DNA of 63,889 nt, counting the filler, from Conidiobolus incongruus B7586 (Eukaryota): assembly GCA_000697335.1 (NCBI GenBank). It is 3 parts of 3 records of this genome, joined end to end, with 100 filler letters (N's around TTAATTAATTAA, not from the genome) between each part and the next. Parts side by side here need not be neighbours in the genome. Positions count along the whole stretch, not along the records: positions 1 to 23,558 come from JNEM01006094.1; 2 more parts are not named here. One strand, given 5' to 3'. Within the stretch, counting starts at the first letter, position 1, and the number at the start of each line of letters is the position of its first letter. This document shows, piece after piece, positions 2,403 through 49,070 of this stretch. Below the pieces are notes generated by a model. That model had not been told where the DNA came from and made no database searches. It was given only the letters and a program-made list of their open reading frames with translations. The position numbers were made by a program, and so were the translations under genes.

Positions 2403-4970
<2,568 letters not shown>

Positions 4971-5342: not shown

Positions 5343-6756
5343 GTAATTATGTTAACAAAAATAGTTTATAAACTTTTTCAACCCCAAAGTGGTTGTTATT
5401 AAATCACAAAATTATAATATTATAAATATAGAGTATATTTTGATAGAATAAATGTTTCCTATAATTTAACTAATAACCTTACAACTAATCATTTTTTAAT
5501 CTATAATTTTAAAATCCATTAATTTTTGATATTGTTCAAATTAACACTTTAAATTCTAGAAAAGTATTCGAATGCATAGTGAATTATTAGCTTTGATGAT
5601 GATTTTTTTTATTTTCATATAACCAATATTATCTCAAAGCACTCCAATGGATCCTTTTGACATAACATGAGAATCAACCAAACTTGATATTAGTCCAAAT
5701 AAAATTTTTGTGTTTATAATTTCATCAAAAATATTGTGTCTTAAACATTATTTGAAAAAAATCAAAAATTGAGGAAAAATAATTCGAATTATACATCATA
5801 TTTAACCAATACTATTATATTAGAATATGTATTAGAATAACTCCAAAATTATTATTAATTATTTAATCACATGGATTCAGGATATTATTAAGCTATCTAA
5901 ATAATTATTGAATCAAGATTAACAGTTTGAAAGTACTAAAATCAAATTTTATTTGTAGAATATATTCAAGTGTAATATTAGGAATAATAGTAAATTTGTT
6001 TCCAAAAGTAATATATATTGGGCCTTCTAAATATCAATTCGTTTAATCTTGTTAATATTATATAAATTAGTATAACAAATTAAAATTACTATATATAGTT
6101 TCTAATTGGATTTCAAAAAATTTAAATTAATAATGATAAGGAATTTTGATATATATTATATTTTATAATATTATATTATCAAAATTTCTTATGTAAAATA
6201 TTTAATGTAATATTTTAAAAATCAAATGATTAAGAATATAAAGATATTACAATTAAATTTTAAAAAAAACATCTCTAATATATTTAATGACTCTTACTTT
6301 GAATTAAATATCAAATCACCTATTTATAATATTCAAATATGTAAATTAAGAAAATGCAAAAATATATAAAAATTTTTTGATATTGAAAATAAATAAAGAT
6401 TATAATATAAAGTTACAAATATAAATATATAATATAAAATCAACACTCCTTTTTATTATTAATAGCTCTTTATTATAGTTTTAACAAGCTTCTAATACTT
6501 AAAAACCAATACTTTTTATCAAATACTGAAATTTGATGTTTCATAAACCAATTAAATTTTTATAAAAATTTTATTATAAGTTAATTTTTTAATTACTTAA
6601 AGCAATTATAATCATATAAGTTATGATTTAGTTATTATACTTGGTGTAGTAGTTTTTTCTAATTATTTTTAATTAAAAATTTTTTTATAGCTTTAATTTA
6701 ATATTTTACAATTATCATGTAAAATAATAAATATCTTTAATTTGTAATAAAAACAC

Positions 6757-7480
6757 TGTTAGTTATATTTTCTAATAACAGGGTCTTACTATGAATAAAT
6801 GAATAAATAGCAAAAAGAGCCTTTTTAAATATGTTTTATTTTGTTTTAATTAGCAGAGCTATTACAAATGCTCAAGCCCATTGATTCTCATCCCCGACAT
6901 GATCTGGATAATATCTTCATACTCTGTGATATTGTTGAACGTCTCTCCACACTGCACCTCTGCATCCTGCACCTCAACATCAAGTGAGTAGAACGTAGAG
7001 GTCAACGGATACATGAGCATACCATATGGGAAGCCACCATCCTGCATATACCCCTCAAGCTGCTGCCTTGCTCTACTTGGATGTGTAGTGTCTTCCTTGC
7101 ACTTGATCACCAGCACTTTGGTTTTGTTTACTAAGACCTCCACAATTATGTCTGCCTTTCTCCTGTCCCTTGCATCCAGATGGTTCTCTGATGTTATAAT
7201 GTATCCATTCTCCACATCAAGCCCCGCGTATCTAAGAAATGCAAATGCTAAGCCTGATATGTTTCCCTCCCATGTTGCATTGGCTGCTATGTTTGCTGTT
7301 CGCTGTATACATACTTTCTGCTGTTCACTGAGCTCCATTTTTTTGCTCTAGGAATAAGGATCCCCTCTATTTCATCATCAATTTATAATTAAATGGTAGA
7401 TTAATTTAAGTTAATATTTGTGGGACTAGGAAATTAAATTTTCTAATAACAATGAATTCTTGTTAGCAGTATCACTAACA
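6757..7480. mobile_element. 724-bp TGT...ACA element with imperfect ~22-bp TIRs and 5-bp TSD (AACAC), carrying one ORF
   Basis: AACAC(6752-6756)|TGTTAGTTATATTTTCTAATAA ... TTGTTAGCAGTATCACTAACA|AACAC(7481-7485). The homologous site in mariner copy B (GAGAACACCATTTAG, ~11026-11040) has a single AACAC and no insertion. Confidence 0.85.
6862..7338 (-). CDS. PD-(D/E)XK restriction-endonuclease-fold protein (HsdR N-terminal-like), 158 aa; catalytic E apparently replaced by K
   Basis: Motif layout E51...KAD63II...VLVI-K79-C-K81...ARQQLEGYM...YGML matches RADxx...VIECK...A..QL..Y. Intronless and clearly more GC-rich than its flanks, with TATAAAT upstream and AATAAA downstream. Confidence 0.7.
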   Translation of the reverse strand: MELSEQQKVCIQRTANIAANATWEGNISGLAFAFLRYAGLDVENGYIITSENHLDARDRRKADIIVEVLVNKTKVLVIKCKEDTTHPSRARQQLEGYMQDGGFPYGMLMYPLTSTFYSLDVEVQDAEVQCGETFNNITEYEDIIQIMSGMRINGLEHL

Positions 7481-8499
7481 AACACCAATTAAAAATAATT
7501 TATATTACTATAACTTATTATAATAATTAACACTTTTTTATAAATAAAATATTTATCTATTAGAATTTATAAATAAGATTATATTAACTTAACATTTTAA
7601 TTGATGTTCTAATAAAGAGTTATATAAAAAGATTTATGATTTATTAATTGTAATAATTTATTGTAAAAGCTTTAATCTTTAGTTATACCTTAATAAATCT
7701 TATTTAATTATAGTTATTCTAGCTTGTTTTTAAGCTCTAGTTAAATTATAAGGTATTAATTTTATATTCTATTAATTAATTTAAGTTTCAACTTTAAAAC
7801 ATATAATATACTTGTATAATTAATATTTAAGTGATATAATAATTTATTAACTAAAATAAAAAGGTACTTATTAGTTGATATTTTAATCTATTGATACTCA
7901 AGAGGATAATAGTTAAAATTAGTTTTTTAAAATTTAATAAGTTTTAGATAATTTTTTTTTAATTTTAAAGTAATTTACTTAACAATAAATAATTAATTTA
8001 AATAAAGCACTATCTTCAAAACTAATTGAAAAAATAAAATGATTTTAAATAGCTTATAGTTAAGTTTTATTAATAGTAAAATCAAAGGCTTATTTTGATT
8101 ATTATTTAATTTAAGTATTATTAAATTAATCAATATATTTTTAAATATTAATTTTATTAATAAAAGATTAAGTATATAATTTAAAATTGTTTATTTTTTA
8201 TTTATTTTGTATATATATTTTTTTTCTGAAACTAATAATATATTTGAAATATCCAAAATTAAAAAATTTTCTATTTTTTTAATACTGTAGTAATATTTAA
8301 TAATAATTCCAGAGAATATGATATAATAACCAATTTTAGCTATGATCCTATTCCTTGTGAGAATTGATGTAAGGTGTGGTAAAATCATTTCCTTGGGTAT
8401 TATATTGTATGAGATGTTAATTACTCACTAAACAGAATTAAATATCTTTAGTGCTATTATATTTATAAAAATTTTAGTTGAATACCCAAAGTTTAAAAA

Positions 8500-9610
8500 A
8501 TGACATACACTTCATATATATTTAACTACCTTCAAAGCAATCTTTCTGACAGCAAAAATTTCTGTGGCAAAGTATTTAACAATATAGGAGATAATTGCAG
8601 GATTTTCAGGGACTCCATTGCAAGTTGGACAAATATAATCATTGGTAATATCAAATCAATCCTCCAATTTAAATGACTAGTCGTGCAACATGTAAATAAA
8701 GGAGTGCTCGGCAACTAGATGGTAATTGTTAAGAGATTCAATTTGTTCTCTAGGGATACACCAACTGAGGATCATATTTTTGATCTTTTTACTATTGAGA
8801 GTATCTTGGCTCAGTTGATCAAAAATAATTTGAGGTGTATCAGCAAGAAGTCTAACTAATTAGATTTGTTAATGGGTTCAATGGAGATTGGAATCGGATG
8901 GCTTGCAATAATAATATAGATTTTGACAAGAAACTCACCAAAATCTTGAAAAGAGCCAAAAGGTTGGAGATACCATGTTTTTTCAGGATTAAACTTGAAC
9001 CCAGAGGGTCATAATACATATCAGCTTGAGTGATTAACTTTCAGAAATCTGTAAACTATTCAAGAGAGGATGAGGATGAAGAAATATGAAATGATTCGGC
9101 TAAGGGAAGAATATCATTATCCTTAATATATACAAGGTGGATTCCAACTATAGTCTTGTGGTTTCTAATAAAAATAACAGATGAATCCAATATAACAGTG
9201 ATCTATTACTCAGGAATAGCTAAAATAGATATATCAAGTAATATTGAAAATATTGTCCAATCATCGTAATTGCTCTGAATACCAAGTAAAGTTTTTAAAA
9301 TCAAAGTTTATTTTCAACCTGAAACCACATCGAGTTTCTATGGTTTTAACCTTTTTAGTCTTATCCCAATATTTAAGGCTGGCTAATAAGGTTTTCATAT
9401 ATCTTTTCATCTTGTAGGTAAAAATATGATCAGGATTATCTATATTTTACTTGAGATAATAGTGTTGTATTGAGTGTTATATTGCTTGAGAATAAATATT
9501 AAAGTAAAAAAACATTCAAATATTTGTGTTAAATTTGATAGTTTATCTAGGCATTTATCAAATATAGGTAGGTATACTCAGAACTAATTCGAATTTCGGG
9601 AACAACCATT
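8500..9610 (-). repeat. Decayed coding-like dispersed repeat of unknown family, homologous in part to 48780-49070
   Basis: TTATCCCAATATTTAAGGCTG (9361) vs TTATCCCAATGTTTAAGGCTG (48821), and TGATAGTTTATC (9536 vs 48992), with near-identical spacing. Stop-riddled minus-strand frames include YICPTC. Boundaries are approximate. Confidence 0.55.
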
Positions 9611-10614
9611 ATCCTTGTCTCATAATTTCTCTTTATAATATCAATTTGATAGAATTTAATATTGAATCAAAAATAACAATTATAAGAAAATCATAACAGA
9701 TTATCTGTGAATAATTCAGCATATATTCTTTATATATAAAATGAAATGAATCTATAATATTGATTAATCACTTCAACACTAATAATAATAATAATATTAA
9801 AGTTATTTGTTTGAAATATCATAGACTGTGACTGTTATTTAGTTTTTCAACAATTCTAAATCTAAAATTTTTGATTATAAAAAATTCTTAGTTAAAATCA
9901 ACTTCCAAAAAGAAAAGCATATTCTTATCAATATAGATATTAGTATTTTTATCAAATTATAAAACTTTTAATATAATAGTAAAATATTGATATTTTTATT
10001 GAACTGATATATTAAGTCAATTTTATAGTGTATTGATTGATTTTTTCTAGTTATAATTCATAATAACCTTGATTATTTTTGCCTATAGTTAAAAAAGACC
10101 ATATATTTAGAATAATATATTATTTAGTGAAACGATATATAATTACGGCAAATATTGAAAATAAGAAAAATCATTTTGAAATCAACAAACATGGAATTTG
10201 AATAAAGTAAAATTAATTAAAGATGTTAATCATTTTAATCTTGTATTCGCAAAATTAAAACCCTATTTGTTTAAATTTCAAATACTATTCATTCAAATAT
10301 CTTGAAACAAATAAAAATTAGTTTACTTTGAAGAATTCAAATATATTAATATTAGTCACTAGCTTATGATAGTTTGTAAAATAATAATAATTATATAAAA
10401 TCAACAATGTTAAATTATCTTTACTGAATAGCTTTACAAACAGTATATTTACTGTATTAACAGCAAGTTATTCAGACTATTATAAAAACATATAATTTTT
10501 AAAATATAGCTTATTAACAAAGTTTTGTTAAATAACTAGTTCCAACATTAGATTCATTTGAATTAAAATACATAATTCATTAACACTGTAAATTTGATCC
10601 AATAAAAGTTATTA

Positions 10615-11932
10615 TTAGTGTAGAAATTAAATAATGGCACAATTTTAAAATTAAAATTAAACAAATAAATTTATAAATAATATATAAAAATTAATGAATA
10701 ATATAAAATTAATAGCCTCTTTTATTATTAATAACTTTTTTCTATACCTTTAGTAAGCTTCTAATACCTAAAAAACAGTTCTTTTTATTAAAGACTGAAA
10801 TTTAATATTTCACAAACCAATTTAATTTGTTTGCAGGAATTTTTTTTCCTGCAAGCTATTTTTTTAATTGTCTAAAACAATTATAATCACATAGATTATA
10901 ATCAGGTGAATATACTGGTTATGGTAACTCCCTCCATTTTTTTTTATATAAAAAATTTTTTACAACTTTAGCTTTATGTATTTTACAATTATCATGTAAA
11001 ATAATAGGTGTCTTTAATTTATATTGAGAACACCATTTAGAAATTGTTTTATTTAATAAAGTAATATATAACTTACTATTAATTAATTTTCCTTGAGGTA
11101 TTAAATAAAAAAACCATATACCATTATAATCTATTACAACAATTAATATTCACTTATATTTAAAGTGTTTATTCATTGGAATTTGTAGAGGGGATTAATT
11201 TAGCTTAACCCAACATCTTGTTTTATTTTTAAGTAAAGGATTATATAAAAGAATCTAAGATTCATTAATTGTAAGTATTTACTATAAAAACCTTTGTTTT
11301 TGGTTATACCTTAATAAGTTTAGTTTAGCTATAGCTACTTTAGTTTTCTTTTAGGTTTCTGTTAAATTATAAGATATCTATTTTACATTTTTATTAATTA
11401 ATCCAAGTTTAAATTTAAGTAAATATAACATGTTTGTATAATTAATATTAAATTGCTTTGATAGTTCTCTAACAGAAATAAAAGGGTATTTCTTAATATA
11501 TTTTTTTACTCTATTAGTAAGTAAAAAAATAACAGTAGAAATTAGTCTTTTAGATTTTGGTAAATTTTAAATAATGTCCCTTCTAGCTTTAAAATCACAA
11601 ATCCAGCAATATATGGTAGTTTTAGATAAAGCACCATCTTCATAAGCTGTTTGTAAGTTTTAGATGATTTTAGAGGGTTTATGGTTAAGTTTTAAAGATA
11701 CAAAAATAAAAGCCTTTTGATAATCACAATCTGGTTTAAGCATGATTAAATTTAAGTGTAAATTTTAAAATCAAAATATTTTAATAAAAAAAATAATTAA
11801 AATTGAATATATATATAGTTTGAAAATATTTATTTTCCTATATATTTTATATATATATAATCTTTCAAAACATATAATATGTTTGAAAGATTGGAAATTA
11901 AAAAATTTGCCATTTCTTAATTTCTATACTAA
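10615..11932 (-). mobile_element. Full-length (1318 bp) but inactivated mariner DD34D transposon, copy B
   Basis: TA-flanked TIRs: left TTAGTGTAGAAATTAAATAATGGCACAATTTT, right (revcomp) TTAGTATAGAAATTAAGAAATGGCAAATTTTT. Contains an internal transposase pseudogene. Confidence 0.93.
10720..11743 (-). pseudogene. Mariner transposase pseudogene
   Basis: From ATG 11743: LQTAYEDGALSKTTIYCWICDFK (HTH), K*ISYNLT (~WVPHEL), ILTINES*I (~TGDESW), IILHDNCKIH, P*PVYSPDYNLCDY. Exactly 34 residues separate the 2nd and 3rd Asp. Many stop codons; 3' end approximate. Confidence 0.9.
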
Positions 11933-13398
11933 TAATATGAAGCTATAAAATCAACAATTATATTCATTAAAATGTATATATATTACATTGAATGCTAGAT
12001 ATTATCTAATATTTAAAGCATTGCATTTAATTCTTCTAATTCTGTAGTTCTTGTTGGAAGTTGTCATAAAATCTCAATATCTAATATATCAAATAAGGCC
12101 AAATCCATCATTTAATTTTCAAAAGTTATGTTATTTATTCTATTATTTAAACATTTTGTTCATATATTCAAAAATAATAATGAATGAAAAGTTGACTAAA
12201 ATTTGATTATTGATCAGATTTTATTTAATATCTGGGGATTTATTTTATAAAAATTATTTAAGATCATTAAATATATTGAATAATAACAAATTTTGTTGTA
12301 AATTTTCAGATATACAATTAATTTCAGTATTAGGTTTTTAATACAGTTCTTATAGCGTAGTTTGTAATAATATTGTAAATATAGAATTTATCACTTGAGA
12401 GTTTAATAATTCAAACAAATATAGCTTTATTTTCATAGTCGATAGGTTCAGGTATTGATATATTGAATATTTGATTTTATCAATCGCAATAGTTAATTTG
12501 AATAAAATTTTATTTAACCAATATCAAATATAGGCAGTTCCATTGATACATTAAAATTGTGATTTAAGTGAATAATACGTATAGTTATAATTTATTTTAT
12601 CTATTTATCAAATAAACCTAAGCTGATAACTTATTCCAAAAATTAAGTGATATATTTACAAATCATAAAAGAATAATTATAAAAAGTTTCCTTTTTAATT
12701 CAAATTCATTGTATTGCATGTAAATTTAAGAATAGATGTTCTATTTCATATATGTGTGTATATTCTTATTGAAGCAATTGTAATAATATATATTATACAA
12801 TATATCAAAACACAAAACCAAAACAATAAGCTATATTGATAACTGGCCCAAGTCGAAGCCAGATAATGGCATATTTAGAATCACTCATAATTTTCTTCCA
12901 TAATATAAATTTAATTCTAATGTTTAATTTCAATTCTTGGATTAAAAGATCTTATTATCGATATAAAATTCTTCTTGTCTATTTTATCACGATTTGACAT
13001 TATTGAAACATTAATTGAATATTATCCATATTTAATCGATTTTATCATTTTCACCTTGAAATATTGTTATTATATATTTTTACAATCATTGTTCAAGATG
13101 AGATTAATATTATAATTTGTATCCTATTTATAATTTAATCTTTTAACCATCATTCAGATTTAAGAGTTGCAAAAATTAAAAACAGGTACAATAATGATTT
13201 TCAAACATATATTTCGTGATATTGAATTGAAATTGAAATATGATACTTTGTTTAATATAATAAATCTTTATTTAAAAAGTTATCAAAAAATAATATACAT
13301 ACAATTTTTAAATATTTGATAATGTTTGAAATTTTCACTATATAACCAATAAAACCAATTTTCTAATATGTGAATATTAATATTTATACTTCTTATAT

Positions 13399-18722: not shown

Positions 18723-21335
<2,613 letters not shown>

Positions 21336-22766
21336 TGAAACAATTACTTCATGTCATATTTTGTATAACGATATTTTAGTCAATCTTCATTCCAATATAT
21401 TACTCTTTCAAAGTTAGTTTCTATTTTTTTAATTTTTTATTCTACATTAAAATGCATGCATTATTTCAATTGTAGATCTTTTTCACTATTTCAATTAGAA
21501 GTGATAATTTAAATGTTTATCCAATTCTACATGAGTTTCATAATGTTAGAAAAGTACTCGTAATATGATTTAGTAAACTATCTATTATCAGTCCTGCTCT
21601 TTAACGTATCGGGACTGTATGTATTAAAACTTACTTTTGAGACGTCGTAGCAGAATAGCCAGAAAAAACTCCCCTCTTATCTTTATCACTTTTGGGGTTT
21701 AAATAGTTGATTCAGTGAAAGATATATCTAACAAAGGGAACGAAGAGAACAAAGAATATCCTTTAATTATAGATTAACAAAGACAACTCAAAATAGAAAT
21801 TATATTAGTTTAACTATCAAATTCAGAAGGGTAGTTAATTTTGAAATACAACAGTAATTAACCTGATGTTTGATTTTATTCATATGAATGTAAATTTTGA
21901 AATAGTTAACAATATAATATGATACCAAATCATATATTACCATTTTTTATGGTAATTAAATTGTAAATATATTTGATTGCAGTTTTTCTCTATAAATTTA
22001 GATATGATATTTGATTTTATCAATTTTGCCTTTCACAATTTTTTTTCAAAAGGTGATTAACAAATTAAGGTGAAAAATATATTAAATCAAATCTATTTAC
22101 TTTTTTAATTACCTTATAATAATATGATCCAGTAATTAACAAAATAAAGTTTTGATAGTTTATTTACAACAAAATCATAAACAATTCTGTAAACTAAATT
22201 AAAGAATTATTTTTAACCTTTTATAAATAATGTTATATTGAAAAATTAACACTTTATATTAATTTTTTTACCTCAAAACAATTGATTTAAATATTAAAAG
22301 CTTTTCTTTGGAAATAGTATAATTTGGCAATTTAAATATCTTTATTATACACAATATTTTAATATTATACATATGCTATATATCAAATATTAATAATCAA
22401 TTTATATTGCTATTCAAAAAATTAAATCAATAATTTGAAATTCAATATATTGTGTATTAAGAAATATAACATATTTGAAAAAAATAAAATACTATGTTTT
22501 TCTATTTATTATTTTAATTATTTAATTGTAATCGTTTTAAGTTATAATTAATAATCAAATTAATATATTTATTATTAATTATTATCAATTAATAATAACA
22601 AATATTTTAAAGATATATATATATATATTAATTTATATAGAATTTTATATAATGCTAAAACAAAAGTATTTATATAAATTATAATATTTTTAATGAAATT
22701 TAAACTTAATATAAAAATATATTAGAGGTTTATTACAGAAATCATAATAAGTGAAACTTAATAATA

Positions 22767-23558
22767 TTACTTTAAAATTGAAAAAATGGGAAATTTTTTC
22801 ATTTCTGATTTTTCAAAAATATAATTTATTTTAAAAAAAATAAAAAAGAATTAATAAGAAAATAAATAATTTTAAATTATATATATAATCTTTTAATAAA
22901 GATTTAACCTTTAAAAACACATTGTTTAATTTAATTATATTTAAATAATCATCAATATAAGTCTTTTATTTTAATATTAGTAAAATTTAATTATAAGCTT
23001 TTTAAATCATTTAATATTTACAAACAATTTTTAAAAACGATGTATTATCTAAATTGATTATATATTATTAGGTAAATTACTTTAAAACTAAAACAAAAAT
23101 TATTTAAAACTTATTAAATTTTAAAAAGCTAATTTTAACTATTATTCTCTTGAGTATCAATTGATTTAAAAATATACTAACAAGTATTTTTTTATTTTAG
23201 TTAAAAAATTATTATATCTCTTAGATAATAATTTTTTAAGTATATTATAAGTATAAAGTTTAAATTTAAACTAATTATTGAAAATATAAAATAAATACTC
23301 AATAATCTAAATAAAGCTTAAAAAGAGTTATAGCTATAATTAAATATATTTATTGAAATAAAACTAAAAATTAAAATTTTTATAATAAATTAATATCATT
23401 ATTATATTAGTTTTTATATAGTTCTTTATTAAAATATAAATTAAAATATTAAAATTATCGTTTTAATCAATTAAATAAATAAATATTTCATTTATATATA
23501 AATCTTAATTATTTTAATAAATATAATGATATATATTATATTTATTTAATTTTTAATA
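22767..23558 (+). mobile_element. Degenerate mariner copy C (5' part), truncated by the assembly gap
   Basis: Reverse-complement similarity to copy A (AATTTTAACTATTATTCTCTTGAGTATCAA ~23131 vs TTGATACTCAAGAGGATAATAGTTAAAATT ~7891). Starts TA|TTACTTTAAAATTGAAAAAATGGGAAATTTT, like the TIR of copy A. Confidence 0.8.
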
Positions 23559-23658
23559 NNNNNNNNNNNNNNNNNNNNNNNNNNNNNNNNNNNNNNNNNN
23601 NNTTAATTAATTAANNNNNNNNNNNNNNNNNNNNNNNNNNNNNNNNNNNNNNNNNNNN
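23559..23658. other. Assembly gap with artificial TTAATTAATTAA linker
   Basis: 44 N + 12-bp all-frame-stop linker + 44 N; identical to the second gap. Confidence 0.97.
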
Positions 23659-40141: not shown

Positions 40142-40241
40142 NNNNNNNNNNNNNNNNNNNNNNNNNNNNNNNNNNNNNNNNNNNNTTAATTAATTAANNN
40201 NNNNNNNNNNNNNNNNNNNNNNNNNNNNNNNNNNNNNNNNN
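40142..40241. other. Assembly gap with artificial TTAATTAATTAA linker
   Basis: Same structure as the first gap. Confidence 0.97.
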
Positions 40242-42561
40242 TAAAATAAAAAATAAAAAAAATATTAAACTATTTTAAACAAAAATACTTTATATTTAAA
40301 TATTCAAAAAATGAGATTTCAATATAAATATAGGTTTTTCATCTTATCAATTAAGCTTTTTGATATAATTCAAAATATTATTCCTAGTATTAAATCAAGA
40401 TATATTTAAAAAGAATTAATCATAAAATAAAAAAAGATATCTTTGTAATTAGATATTCAATTCAACTGCTTTAAAATTTTATAACTAATTCTAATCAAAA
40501 TAACGCTTGAGTGTTGAATAAATAAAATATTCTAATATAACTAAACAACTGAAGTATCTTTAAATTTAAAAATCTTTGATAAATTAATAATATTTATAGA
40601 AATAAACCATTAAACATCGATATTCAAGTATTAATTAAAATTATAGACTTTTAAATTTGATTAAATTATCAATTTTTGCATAATATTATATGTATATTTA
40701 CAGTAATTGATAATATAGCAATTCTTCAATATATCTGGTTAAGTTATTAAATCCATAAATATATTTAAATATATAATATCATTATATAAATACTCAATAA
40801 TTAAGTACTAATATCAAGTTTAGTTTACAGAACATTTAAACTTATTAATTATCCCTAAAAATTCAACAAGAGCATAAAAGGATATTTGAACAAATTGGCA
40901 AAATATGCAATAGATTATTATTTGCGTTTTGGATATAAATATTTTATAATTAGAATTAAAATTTGATAAATCTAGATATATTCTAATAAGAGATTAAAAC
41001 TAGGAATAATATTATTAATTGTAAAATTATAAGTTTTGGAAAAGAATATACTATAGAGAGAAGTCAATAATAGAAATAAAAGTCAAACAGAACCATCCAA
41101 AACTATAGGTATAATTATTATAACTGTGTGCAAAATTAATTATCATTTTTAAAATATACAATGGATATTATCATGCTTATATATATTTTCACTCTGAATT
41201 AACGTTTGAGAATATTATTTGATTATTTCAAATATTGTATAAGATATTGAATATCAAATTTGAAAGTTATTTGAAAATGTATATAAACATTTAATATGAT
41301 TTTAATAATAAAAATATATAGGAAGAAATAAATTTGGTATACAAATTTAAAACCATTGATATCTATTAATGGTATTAATAATATTTAATATCTTCAAAAT
41401 CATTTTGGAATAAATATAATAATTTTAGGTATGCCAATATTTTATAAAGATATTATTACATATATTATATAGAATTTTTTTAATAAATATTAATTATTTT
41501 AATTAAAAGAAATAATTCTATTAGATAACCGTGATATATATTATATTAAATCAAATAAACTAGAAAGATTAATATATATTTCTTGAAATTATTTTTTTAT
41601 AAATTTATAATAATTTGTTATTAAAAATATCAATTAAAATATTTTACCAATTTTTTATATATTATATATATATTAATTTATATATATAAATTCTTAGTAA
41701 AATATATTTAATATTAGATTTGTAAAGTCTAATCAAATGTTCATATTTATTCTAACTCACAAAGAAAATTTAAACACCATAACTTGCTGAAATATATATC
41801 TATGCAATACTTTTCAAGGATAAGTTTTAAATTAAAAATATACAGAATATTAACAATGATAATATATTATTCATGAAATTAAAATAATTTTTGAAAAATA
41901 TAACTTTTATGAATTAAAAATAAATAAAAATTGGAATTGAATTTATTAAATTAATTATATTATAAAATTAACATTAAAAATATTTGAATCAAATAAATAA
42001 TTAAAATGGTATTAAGTGATTTCAATCATTTTAAAAATATGTCAACTCAATGATAAAATTATTGATATTGTTATATAGTTATATAGATTTGATTAAATTA
42101 TAAATATGAAATTTCCAAATTAGACGCAATCAAATATTATAATGATATTGATAGTATCATGCTAAGTTCAAATAATCAAATTGACTATGGAGATAATAAA
42201 TACAATGCTAATAATGTATAAAGATTAGAAATAATATTTATATTTGTTTAAAATATCATAATATTATAAATTTCGTTGATATTAATATATTTGAATTTGA
42301 AGATAAATGGAAAATCCAATATGCTAGTTTAAATTACATCATATTATTTGACGAGTTAGGTAGTCGGGAAATTATGAATCAATTAACTGTTAATTTTGTG
42401 GTCAAAAATCAATCCCATAATAATTGAAAATGTGAAATAGTTTTATTAATATGGAATTTAAAGCAAGGACGAAAATCACTTTTTTCTCTAAAGAATAGAA
42501 AAAGGTTTAGAAACCAATATCTAAAATCATTTGAAAATTTTCCCGATTATAATTTTGAAAA

Positions 42562-47759: not shown

Positions 47760-49070
47760 GATTCATAACCCCGATCATCAATTTCTTGGGAATACCGAGT
47801 TCTTGTTCAGAGTCAATATCAACGTTGCCCATAATCTCTCTATCAGAGCTACTTTCATCCCAGATAATTGGAGCATCGGATTCCTCAATAGTAGAAATAC
47901 AATCGGAGAGAATCAGAATCCATTTACTGATATTCGATCTTCCAGGTTCTTCCTCATCAAATTTTTCATCATTAATCCCAGCTCCTGTCAGCTTGTTTTC
48001 ATTGATGAACGAATTAAGTTGGGCGAGAGGATTAGGTATTACACTCTCATCTTAGCTTTCATGAGACCCTTTTCTTGAAAGCCATGCAGAGCCTCCTAAA
48101 GATGGAATTAATGATTAAGCATTAACTTTTTACAATTTAAGTGCAGGAAGATTAATGACACATCTATATAGGATCATATTGCCAAACACCTCGCCAATAG
48201 AAATTAAATCAATTATTGCTATTATGTAGCCTGTACATTTTTCGCTAAAACAATAGTAACGCTTCTATTATTGAATGGAATTTATTGAAATTAAAAGCAT
48301 TTGAACGATAATCAGTAAGCTGATGAAACTGTATATGAATTCTCGTGAGAAAAAACTGTACACTTATTTCGAAGTAGATAGCTTGGACTGAAAACTCTGG
48401 ATGATTTCTCAGCAAGCAATGGCAGAGGCTATTTACTCGATATGGTATGTTATATTCTGCTATTTTAAGATAAATTCAAAAAATTTCAACTCTACAATGA
48501 CCAAACTAGTTTTTGTAGGTAATTATAATTTTAAAGATAAATATTTTGTATAATTGTTAAATAAAGCTTATAAACTATATTGCTTTTAAGCTTAAATCTA
48601 ATATCCCACATTATTTTATATTCAGGGAACTTTTATTTATGGTATTAAACTTGTATAAGACTTTTGCTTTTGGTGTTTTGAAATAACTTTTGGGTTATGT
48701 ATTTTGTTTTTTTCTTGAGTTTGATATTGTGTTCACCCTTATTAAAGAGTTGTTTGATTATTGGGGACTGTGTGGAGCTGGAATCAACCTGATGATTATA
48801 TGGTTCTGACTTTTCCAGCTTTATCCCAATGTTTAAGGCTGCTTAATTATATTCCAATGTATTCTTATATTTTGGAGGCGATAACATAAAAATTGTTTAT
48901 ATTTAACTGAGGATACCAATAATGCATTTAGTGCTGCATTATTTAAAATTTAATACTATTAAAGGTAATATCCAAGTATCTGTGTTGCAAGTGATAGTTT
49001 ATCAAAGCCTTGATTATTTATTGATAAGTGTGCACAGAACCAGTGGAAATTCTGGGAAGTGTTAAAATTA
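47760..49070 (-). repeat. Decayed coding-like region; 48780-49070 is homologous to 9330-9610
   Basis: Shared anchors with 9361/9536. The minus frame at 47760-48100 is acidic and open apart from one stop. Identity unknown. Confidence 0.45.

Follow-up and report, generated by a model that had tools for sequence, protein, structure and literature searches.

A 724-bp segment in the genome of Conidiobolus incongruus B7586 is an insertion that has TGT...ACA termini, is flanked by a 5-bp target duplication, and holds a single gene, predicted to encode a nuclease of the restriction-endonuclease type. This miniature unit is real and mobile, and it is apparently undescribed so far. The explanation that we favor, tentatively and at somewhat less than an even chance, is a non-autonomous DNA element that would be moved in trans by a DDE integrase of the retroviral type (rve), with the nuclease as its selfish payload.

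Boundaries, empty site, and host mariner

In the window, i.e., the whole stretch of 63,889 nucleotides that was analyzed, the element occupies positions 6757–7480 (no strand assigned), begins with TGTTAGT, ends with ACTAACA, and lies between exact copies of AACAC at 6752–6756 and 7481–7485 (both on the plus strand), as the first-pass annotation of this DNA had described. Its host, mariner copy A (6375–8297, minus strand, 13% GC), is interrupted just upstream of the codons for the LHDN motif. Once the element and one AACAC are excised by script, copy A aligns through the junction with mariner copy B (10613–11934, minus strand) at 576 of 835 columns (69%; copy B window 10683–11515), and the single AACAC of copy B at 11029–11033 is the empty site that the annotation had recognized. 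The combination of ends and duplication is in itself not rare in an AT-rich window (28% GC overall), where a 7-bp TGT inverted repeat with a 5-bp flanking repeat within 10 kb occurs 4 times, against a mean of 3.3 in 100 shuffles; thus, it is the empty site that provides real evidence. We regard the element as real because the empty site sets the same boundaries independently and because the matches of other contigs, which have other flanks, stop at the same right end.

The claimed nesting within a mariner also holds. Judging from sequence, the host is a decayed Tc1/mariner: the TIRs of copy B match at 21 of 24 positions, and weak Pfam matches that do not reach the curated cut-offs (DDE_3, E 5.6e-4; Transposase_1, E 6.4e-3) come from one of the three open stretches of this copy that were scanned. 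Mariner copies and fragments (three copies) are found at 6375–8297, 10613–11934, 22757–23550, and 41536–41973 and are 67–79% alike. Copies A and B, at 13–19% GC and with no CpG left, display a RIP-like or methylation-driven pattern of decay, and the first of two N-runs (N44, 12 bases, N44; 23559–23658 and 40142–40241) ends copy C slightly before the position that corresponds to the insertion point. Elsewhere in the window, a pair of genes that we take to be cdc48-like lies in inverted orientation at 2404–4970 and 18723–21294 with 98.9% identity, the frame of the second copy shifting near the C-terminus; the pair is either a recent duplication or an assembly artifact. A decayed repeat is 66% identical between 9336–9602 and 48796–49058, and the frames across 8500–9600 are riddled with stops.

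Integrase-type ends

An imperfect TIR of about 22 bp had been claimed, which overstates the likeness of the two ends: in register, their inverted match is 7/7 and 10/11 but only 13/22, and 20/45 over the longer span. Both ends instead carry ATTTTCTAATAACA in the same orientation. The left-end unit (6757–6780, plus strand) starts with TGTTAG, ends with TAACA, and holds the first copy of this 14-bp direct repeat (6767–6780); the second copy lies at 7438–7451 (plus strand), and the right-end unit (7461–7480, plus strand) is a short palindrome, TGTTAG-N8-CTAACA, at which four other contigs match. When the two 60-bp ends were shuffled 20,000 times, a direct repeat of at least 14 bp appeared twice. 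Of the 6 TGTTA/TAACA words that the element contains, 5 fall within 35 bp of an end. Reiterated sites or repeats at the termini are a feature of multi-site transposase ends. The ends fold no better than their shuffles (z of 0.10, −0.05, and −0.89), and an HUH-type mechanism with hairpin ends was dropped on this account. Also dropped was the reading of the 20–24 bp end units as miniature LTRs (TRIM), with no TGG primer site or purine tract seen by eye to adjoin them.

TG...CA ends together with a 5-bp TSD are described as the signature of integrase-type DDE enzymes (PMC2836005, PMC3601003), and from these two features of the element, we infer that it was inserted by a retroviral-type integrase. 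The unit itself encodes none and, hence, would be either moved in trans or the remnant of a larger element. An ORF survey of the window, whose genes point to a fungus, found neither an autonomous partner nor an integrase. With the nuclease as the sole ORF within the ends, the element might in principle be autonomous and the nuclease its own transposase, which we consider extremely improbable: the ends and TSD bear the integrase-type signature, and a single domain of 158 aa would have no evident means of pairing ends or transferring strands.

A remnant, in turn, might be what recombination spared of a larger element that had the nuclease ORF inside its repeat, namely, a solo LTR or a KolobokP-like long terminal direct repeat. 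TG...CA ends, a 5-bp TSD, an inverted repeat of 7–11 bp, and a length of 724 bp are all LTR features, as is a TATA box followed by an AATAAA about 80 bp from the element end. The termini TGTTAG...CTAACA fit the Sire pattern TGTTRR...CYAACA and match the general LTR pattern TGTTRNR...YNYAACA at 6 of 7 letters at each end (PMC3601003). Furthermore, one protein of Smittium simulii occurs under three accessions on a single 82-kb contig, as an LTR multimer would give. Several observations tell mildly against this reading: the ORF would fill the space from the TATA box to the poly(A) signal; the 14-bp repeat is common to both ends; no contig other than the window's own is 80% alike across the interior, which decay could hide; and none of 4 other right ends has a flank resembling a PBS or PPT, although solo LTRs themselves lack such flanks. 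No second full copy of the element is paired around gag-pol in the window. The inverted repeat of 10/11, which is LTR-like and far shorter than the TIRs of Ginger elements, counts against a DNA element, and since it fits LTRs better than Ginger elements, the solo LTR, albeit doubtful, retains a substantial minority share of our confidence. Three points nevertheless lead us to favor a non-autonomous DNA element: the end sites are reiterated, the ORF takes up the whole interior, and PBS- or PPT-like flanks are absent.

Sister copies in the same sample

Other copies sharing the termini, which the first-pass annotation had suggested looking for, were found among sequencing contigs. The element's words are present in four runs of one sample and next to absent from three other runs; 4 of these 7 runs were compared at the contig level, among them X1 and X4, which are from the same sample and not independent, and X5 and X7, which are from other samples. 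In X1, 4 other contigs match the right end over 63–83 bp with 6–12 differences (from 7400 or 7406 to 7468–7482) and then continue into four different flanks, and 1 other contig matches the left end (6768–6816, 3 differences). X4 contains 3 of the same right ends, the left-end contig, whose loose letters start a TGTTAA terminus, and one contig matching 7386–7432 only. Four other right ends with different flanks and another left end in contigs of the same sample indicate that the element is a mobile family. In all 4 right flanks (30 letters each, by eye), there is no TGG or pyrimidine-run start and no likeness to a PBS or PPT. No contig of X5 or X7 matched the element, which does not prove its absence from those samples, and no RNA dataset is among the listed holders of the element's words. 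In X1, the 30 letters of a loose end behind position 7475 (record 5) resemble by eye the mariner B sequence beside the empty site; if real, this would place a sister at roughly the corresponding position in a further mariner copy, through shared ancestry or target preference, but the likeness is weak and may be due to chance in AT-rich sequence. In both runs, the contig with the window's copy has a word depth about 2 to 3 times as high as the sister contigs at the right end, depth not being copy number.

The ORF is covered at 80% identity or more by 1 contig per run only, the source-like one, and none but the window's own contig in X1 and X4 joins both ends across the ORF at 80% identity; thus, the sisters would have either other contents or an ORF in more advanced decay. 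This raises the alternative that the element belongs to an ordinary non-autonomous family that captured a small fungal nuclease gene once, the relatives of the protein being host genes or genes mobile by other means. The rarity of the ORF relative to the 4 other right ends in X1 and its GC content (45%, against 23–26% for the element ends) are as expected from such a passenger. Yet the loose ends of the sisters are similar to the element up to about 7371, which leaves 33 bp to the ATG, and also across the left poly(A) signal, with differences of the C>T type; the sister copies, compared by eye, would therefore share the expression signals. The nuclease family, moreover, is small, stand-alone, and often multi-copy. 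Together with the sister evidence, this renders a one-off capture distinctly unlikely.

A predicted HsdR-type nuclease as the only gene

All the expression features listed by the first-pass annotation are present on the minus strand: an intronless ORF of 158 aa (6862–7338) whose ATG follows a run of A, a TATAAAT box (7381–7387), at which the sisters' loose ends read differently by eye, and a polyadenylation-like AATAAA (6835–6840), identified by motif only. The structure model of the ORF protein is confident (pLDDT 90.7). Its top match in VIA-align is BpuSI (Z 9.5, rmsd 3.7, 134 residues aligned), followed by DrdV (Z 8.9), a putative restriction endonuclease (Z 8.7), and, in fifth and sixth places, the HsdR subunits of EcoR124I (Z 8.5) and Vibrio vulnificus (Z 8.1); the Z-scores are modest overall, and the fourth match is a mitoribosomal protein, not a nuclease (Z 8.5). 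Structural neighbors in the Atlas include HSDR_N, one of them being a Mucoromycota cluster with 17% Crinkler members. Foldseek also placed DrdV first. Of the structure searches, VIA-align and the Atlas yield restriction-type nucleases, whereas Foldseek, which the annotation had proposed, returned nothing under E 0.001. Pfam HSDR_N_2 or PDDEXK was detected in 16 of 20 relatives, in every case under the curated cut-off, and there was no PDB sequence match.

Collectively, the ORF is predicted to encode an HsdR-type PD-(D/E)XK nuclease with a QxxxY motif, in agreement with the HsdR-N-like layout first proposed for it. The motif residues are E24, D63, K79 (E in relatives), K81, and Q93xxxY97. Close relatives, with the partial protein P0017 left out, keep E24, D63, and K81 in 18 of 18 cases and E79 in 17 of 18; in a wide alignment, the Q and Y of QxxxY are found in 24 and 25 of 30 sequences, respectively. 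The model has no separate DNA-recognition domain by which the nuclease would choose a site, which tells against the favored reading. The window protein has a lysine in place of the catalytic glutamate at position 79 and differs at 10 conserved columns, 5 of which can be attributed to C>T or G>A substitutions, the same bias that cut the mariner copies to 13–19% GC. This lysine and the further changes of the C>T/G>A type make it likely that the copy in the window is inactive, with its reading frame still open.

A small and patchily distributed protein family

Homologs of the ORF protein, 56–72% identical, comprise 17 close matches among 26 candidates and 19 among 1,379 by profile; they include proteins of Umbelopsis isabellina, Umbelopsis sp. 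WA50703, and Conidiobolus coronatus. An exhaustive profile search produced 49 clusters, 45 of them under 200 aa. Among the 19 of 48 new representatives that were looked up, none is bacterial and 7 have an organism name: Neoconidiobolus, Smittium (4), Coemansia, and Dimargaris; Furculomyces is present as a cluster member. The named relatives come from Zoopagomycota and Umbelopsis only. Judged by these sequences, the family is one of small stand-alone proteins with a single domain of about 140–175 aa. A longer match, P0040, was rejected as a real fusion, its first 67 residues being identical to P0008 and followed by LysM repeats, which points to a fused gene model; P0065 was rejected as a repetitive chance match. 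For each of two distant members, P0093 and P0052, the longest contig on record has 22,315 bases, so they may lie on one contig.

In S. simulii, S. angustum, Coemansia sp. RSA 2049, and F. boomerangus, proteins that are identical or >90% identical are encoded by two or more loci; mobility may explain this, as may haplotypes, genome duplications, or duplicated assemblies. Identities to the window protein of 63% in Umbelopsis and 60% in C. coronatus, i.e., across two phyla, suggest horizontal movement. The homolog phylogeny that the first-pass annotation had called for was built, but support in the close clade is weak; hence, the tree does not demonstrate transfer. The retention of catalytic residues in a small, patchy, and often multi-copy family further suggests selection at the level of the element. 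Searches for related loci confirmed none of the candidates, of which 96 were pattern matches in metagenome contigs, 10 were in prokaryote genomes, and 63, 12, 14, and 8 were in viral contigs. Metagenome and viral contigs also gave no exact match to the DNA pattern of the right end, and tblastn against phages and plasmids found nothing. An association of the ORF with TGT...ACA ends is seen at one locus only.

Comparison with known systems

Among described elements, the Ginger2/TDD group has TGTNR termini, with 5-bp TSDs in TDD-4 and TDD-5, and includes non-autonomous copies (Bao et al. 2010, PMC2836005). This superfamily is listed as ubiquitous in fungi (PMC5751038). The element resembles it in having TGTTA at both ends, and AACAC, from one insertion, fits a TSD of 4 or 5 bp; unlike Ginger2/TDD elements, whose TIRs span 45–297 bp (PMC2836005), it shows an inverted match of 10/11, 13/22, and 20/45 and has no integrase. 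Membership in Ginger2 was rejected on TIR length, and the word "nuclease" is absent from the main text of the Ginger paper (PMC2836005). Solo LTRs of the Ty1/copia and Ty3/gypsy types share with it the short TGTT...AACA inverted repeat, the 5-bp TSD, and the order of TATA and AATAAA (Benachenhou et al. 2013, PMC3601003), whereas the interior of the element is filled by a conserved nuclease ORF, the 14-bp direct repeat stands at both ends, and no internal domain was seen. IS481EU elements, as described from parabasalid hosts, have an IS481-like transposase, TIRs that are in most cases shorter than 50 bp, and TSDs close to 4, 15, or 25 bp in length; the TGT...ACA ends and short TIR of the element fit this description, but it has one 5-bp TSD, a fungal host, and no transposase.

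Selfish nucleases of the PD-(D/E)XK fold are also known from fungal SPOK proteins, SPOK3 being similar to HsdR and having QxxxY (PMC6660238, PMC9972908), and the restriction-endonuclease-like domain of Crinklers is a PD-(D/E)XK effector domain (review, PMC5289972). These proteins are multidomain, with kinase, NTPase, or header domains, whereas the element's protein has one domain. Membership in Spok was rejected for this single 158-aa domain without fused N-terminal or kinase-like domains, the only longer close match being the LysM gene model, and membership in Crinklers was rejected for the missing header domain, the nuclease domain spanning the whole protein; no Crinkler Pfam match was found in the window protein or 20 relatives. 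The element might still act as a Spok-like toxin that lacks resistance, spreading by the killing of nuclei or spores without an antidote encoded elsewhere. The killing domain of SPOK3 is likewise PD-(D/E)XK with QxxxY and has V. vulnificus HsdR as its best match, a structure that the ORF model also matches; against this, SPOK killing needs a fused kinase-like resistance domain, and in an element with no room for more than its single-domain protein, such a toxin is very improbable.

The literature searched, with most subscription papers outside it, contained no published description of this layout, and the family may stand unnamed in Repbase or in the TE libraries of supplements.

A possible mode of spread

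If the element is indeed non-autonomous and integrase-moved, the integrase of its partner would bind the reiterated TGTTA/TAACA sites in the terminal 25–50 bp and join the CA-3' ends to target strands cut with a 5-nt offset, from which the duplication would arise. The ORF would be transcribed from the promoter at the right end of the element, with transcription ending at the left-end AATAAA. An intact copy could then make DNA breaks that favor the element, and we infer that the nuclease likely has such a role in the element's own spread. It may do so by cutting the 5' strand at the element ends, in the way that TnsA cuts the 5' strand at the ends of Tn7. The simplest possibility would be cutting at or near vacated or empty sites, upon which repair would copy the element back, following the logic of TnpB. 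For TnpB, break-induced retention or spread has been shown, and for KolobokP, nuclease-aided retention or spread has been proposed. The element would share with these nuclease-carrying mobile elements a non-DDE nuclease thought or shown to aid persistence or multiplication, but theirs is found beside a transposase or is RNA-guided, whereas here an HsdR-type domain is the only gene between integrase-type ends.

Discussion

To our knowledge, few eukaryotic elements carry a second nuclease, and in those described it either accompanies a transposase or is guided by RNA. A wider reading, which we consider unlikely in its entirety but by no means far-fetched, is that the element represents an undescribed class of sub-kilobase integrase-type elements, spread in part horizontally across Zoopagomycota and Umbelopsis, in which a nuclease of the HsdR/SPOK type would be the standard and only payload, would drive retention or spread, and would constitute a free-moving source of killing domains for spore killers and effectors. 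If the element should prove to be a solo LTR, a nuclease ORF within an LTR would be likewise unusual. If the integrase-moved reading is true, the union of integrase-type ends with one restriction-type nuclease would represent, in early-diverging fungi, a new selfish design that is simple to test. A family of small genes annotated as "hypothetical" in Conidiobolus, Smittium, Coemansia, Dimargaris, and Umbelopsis would thereby be accounted for, and the finding would bear on the origin of the nuclease domains of the SPOK and Crinkler types.
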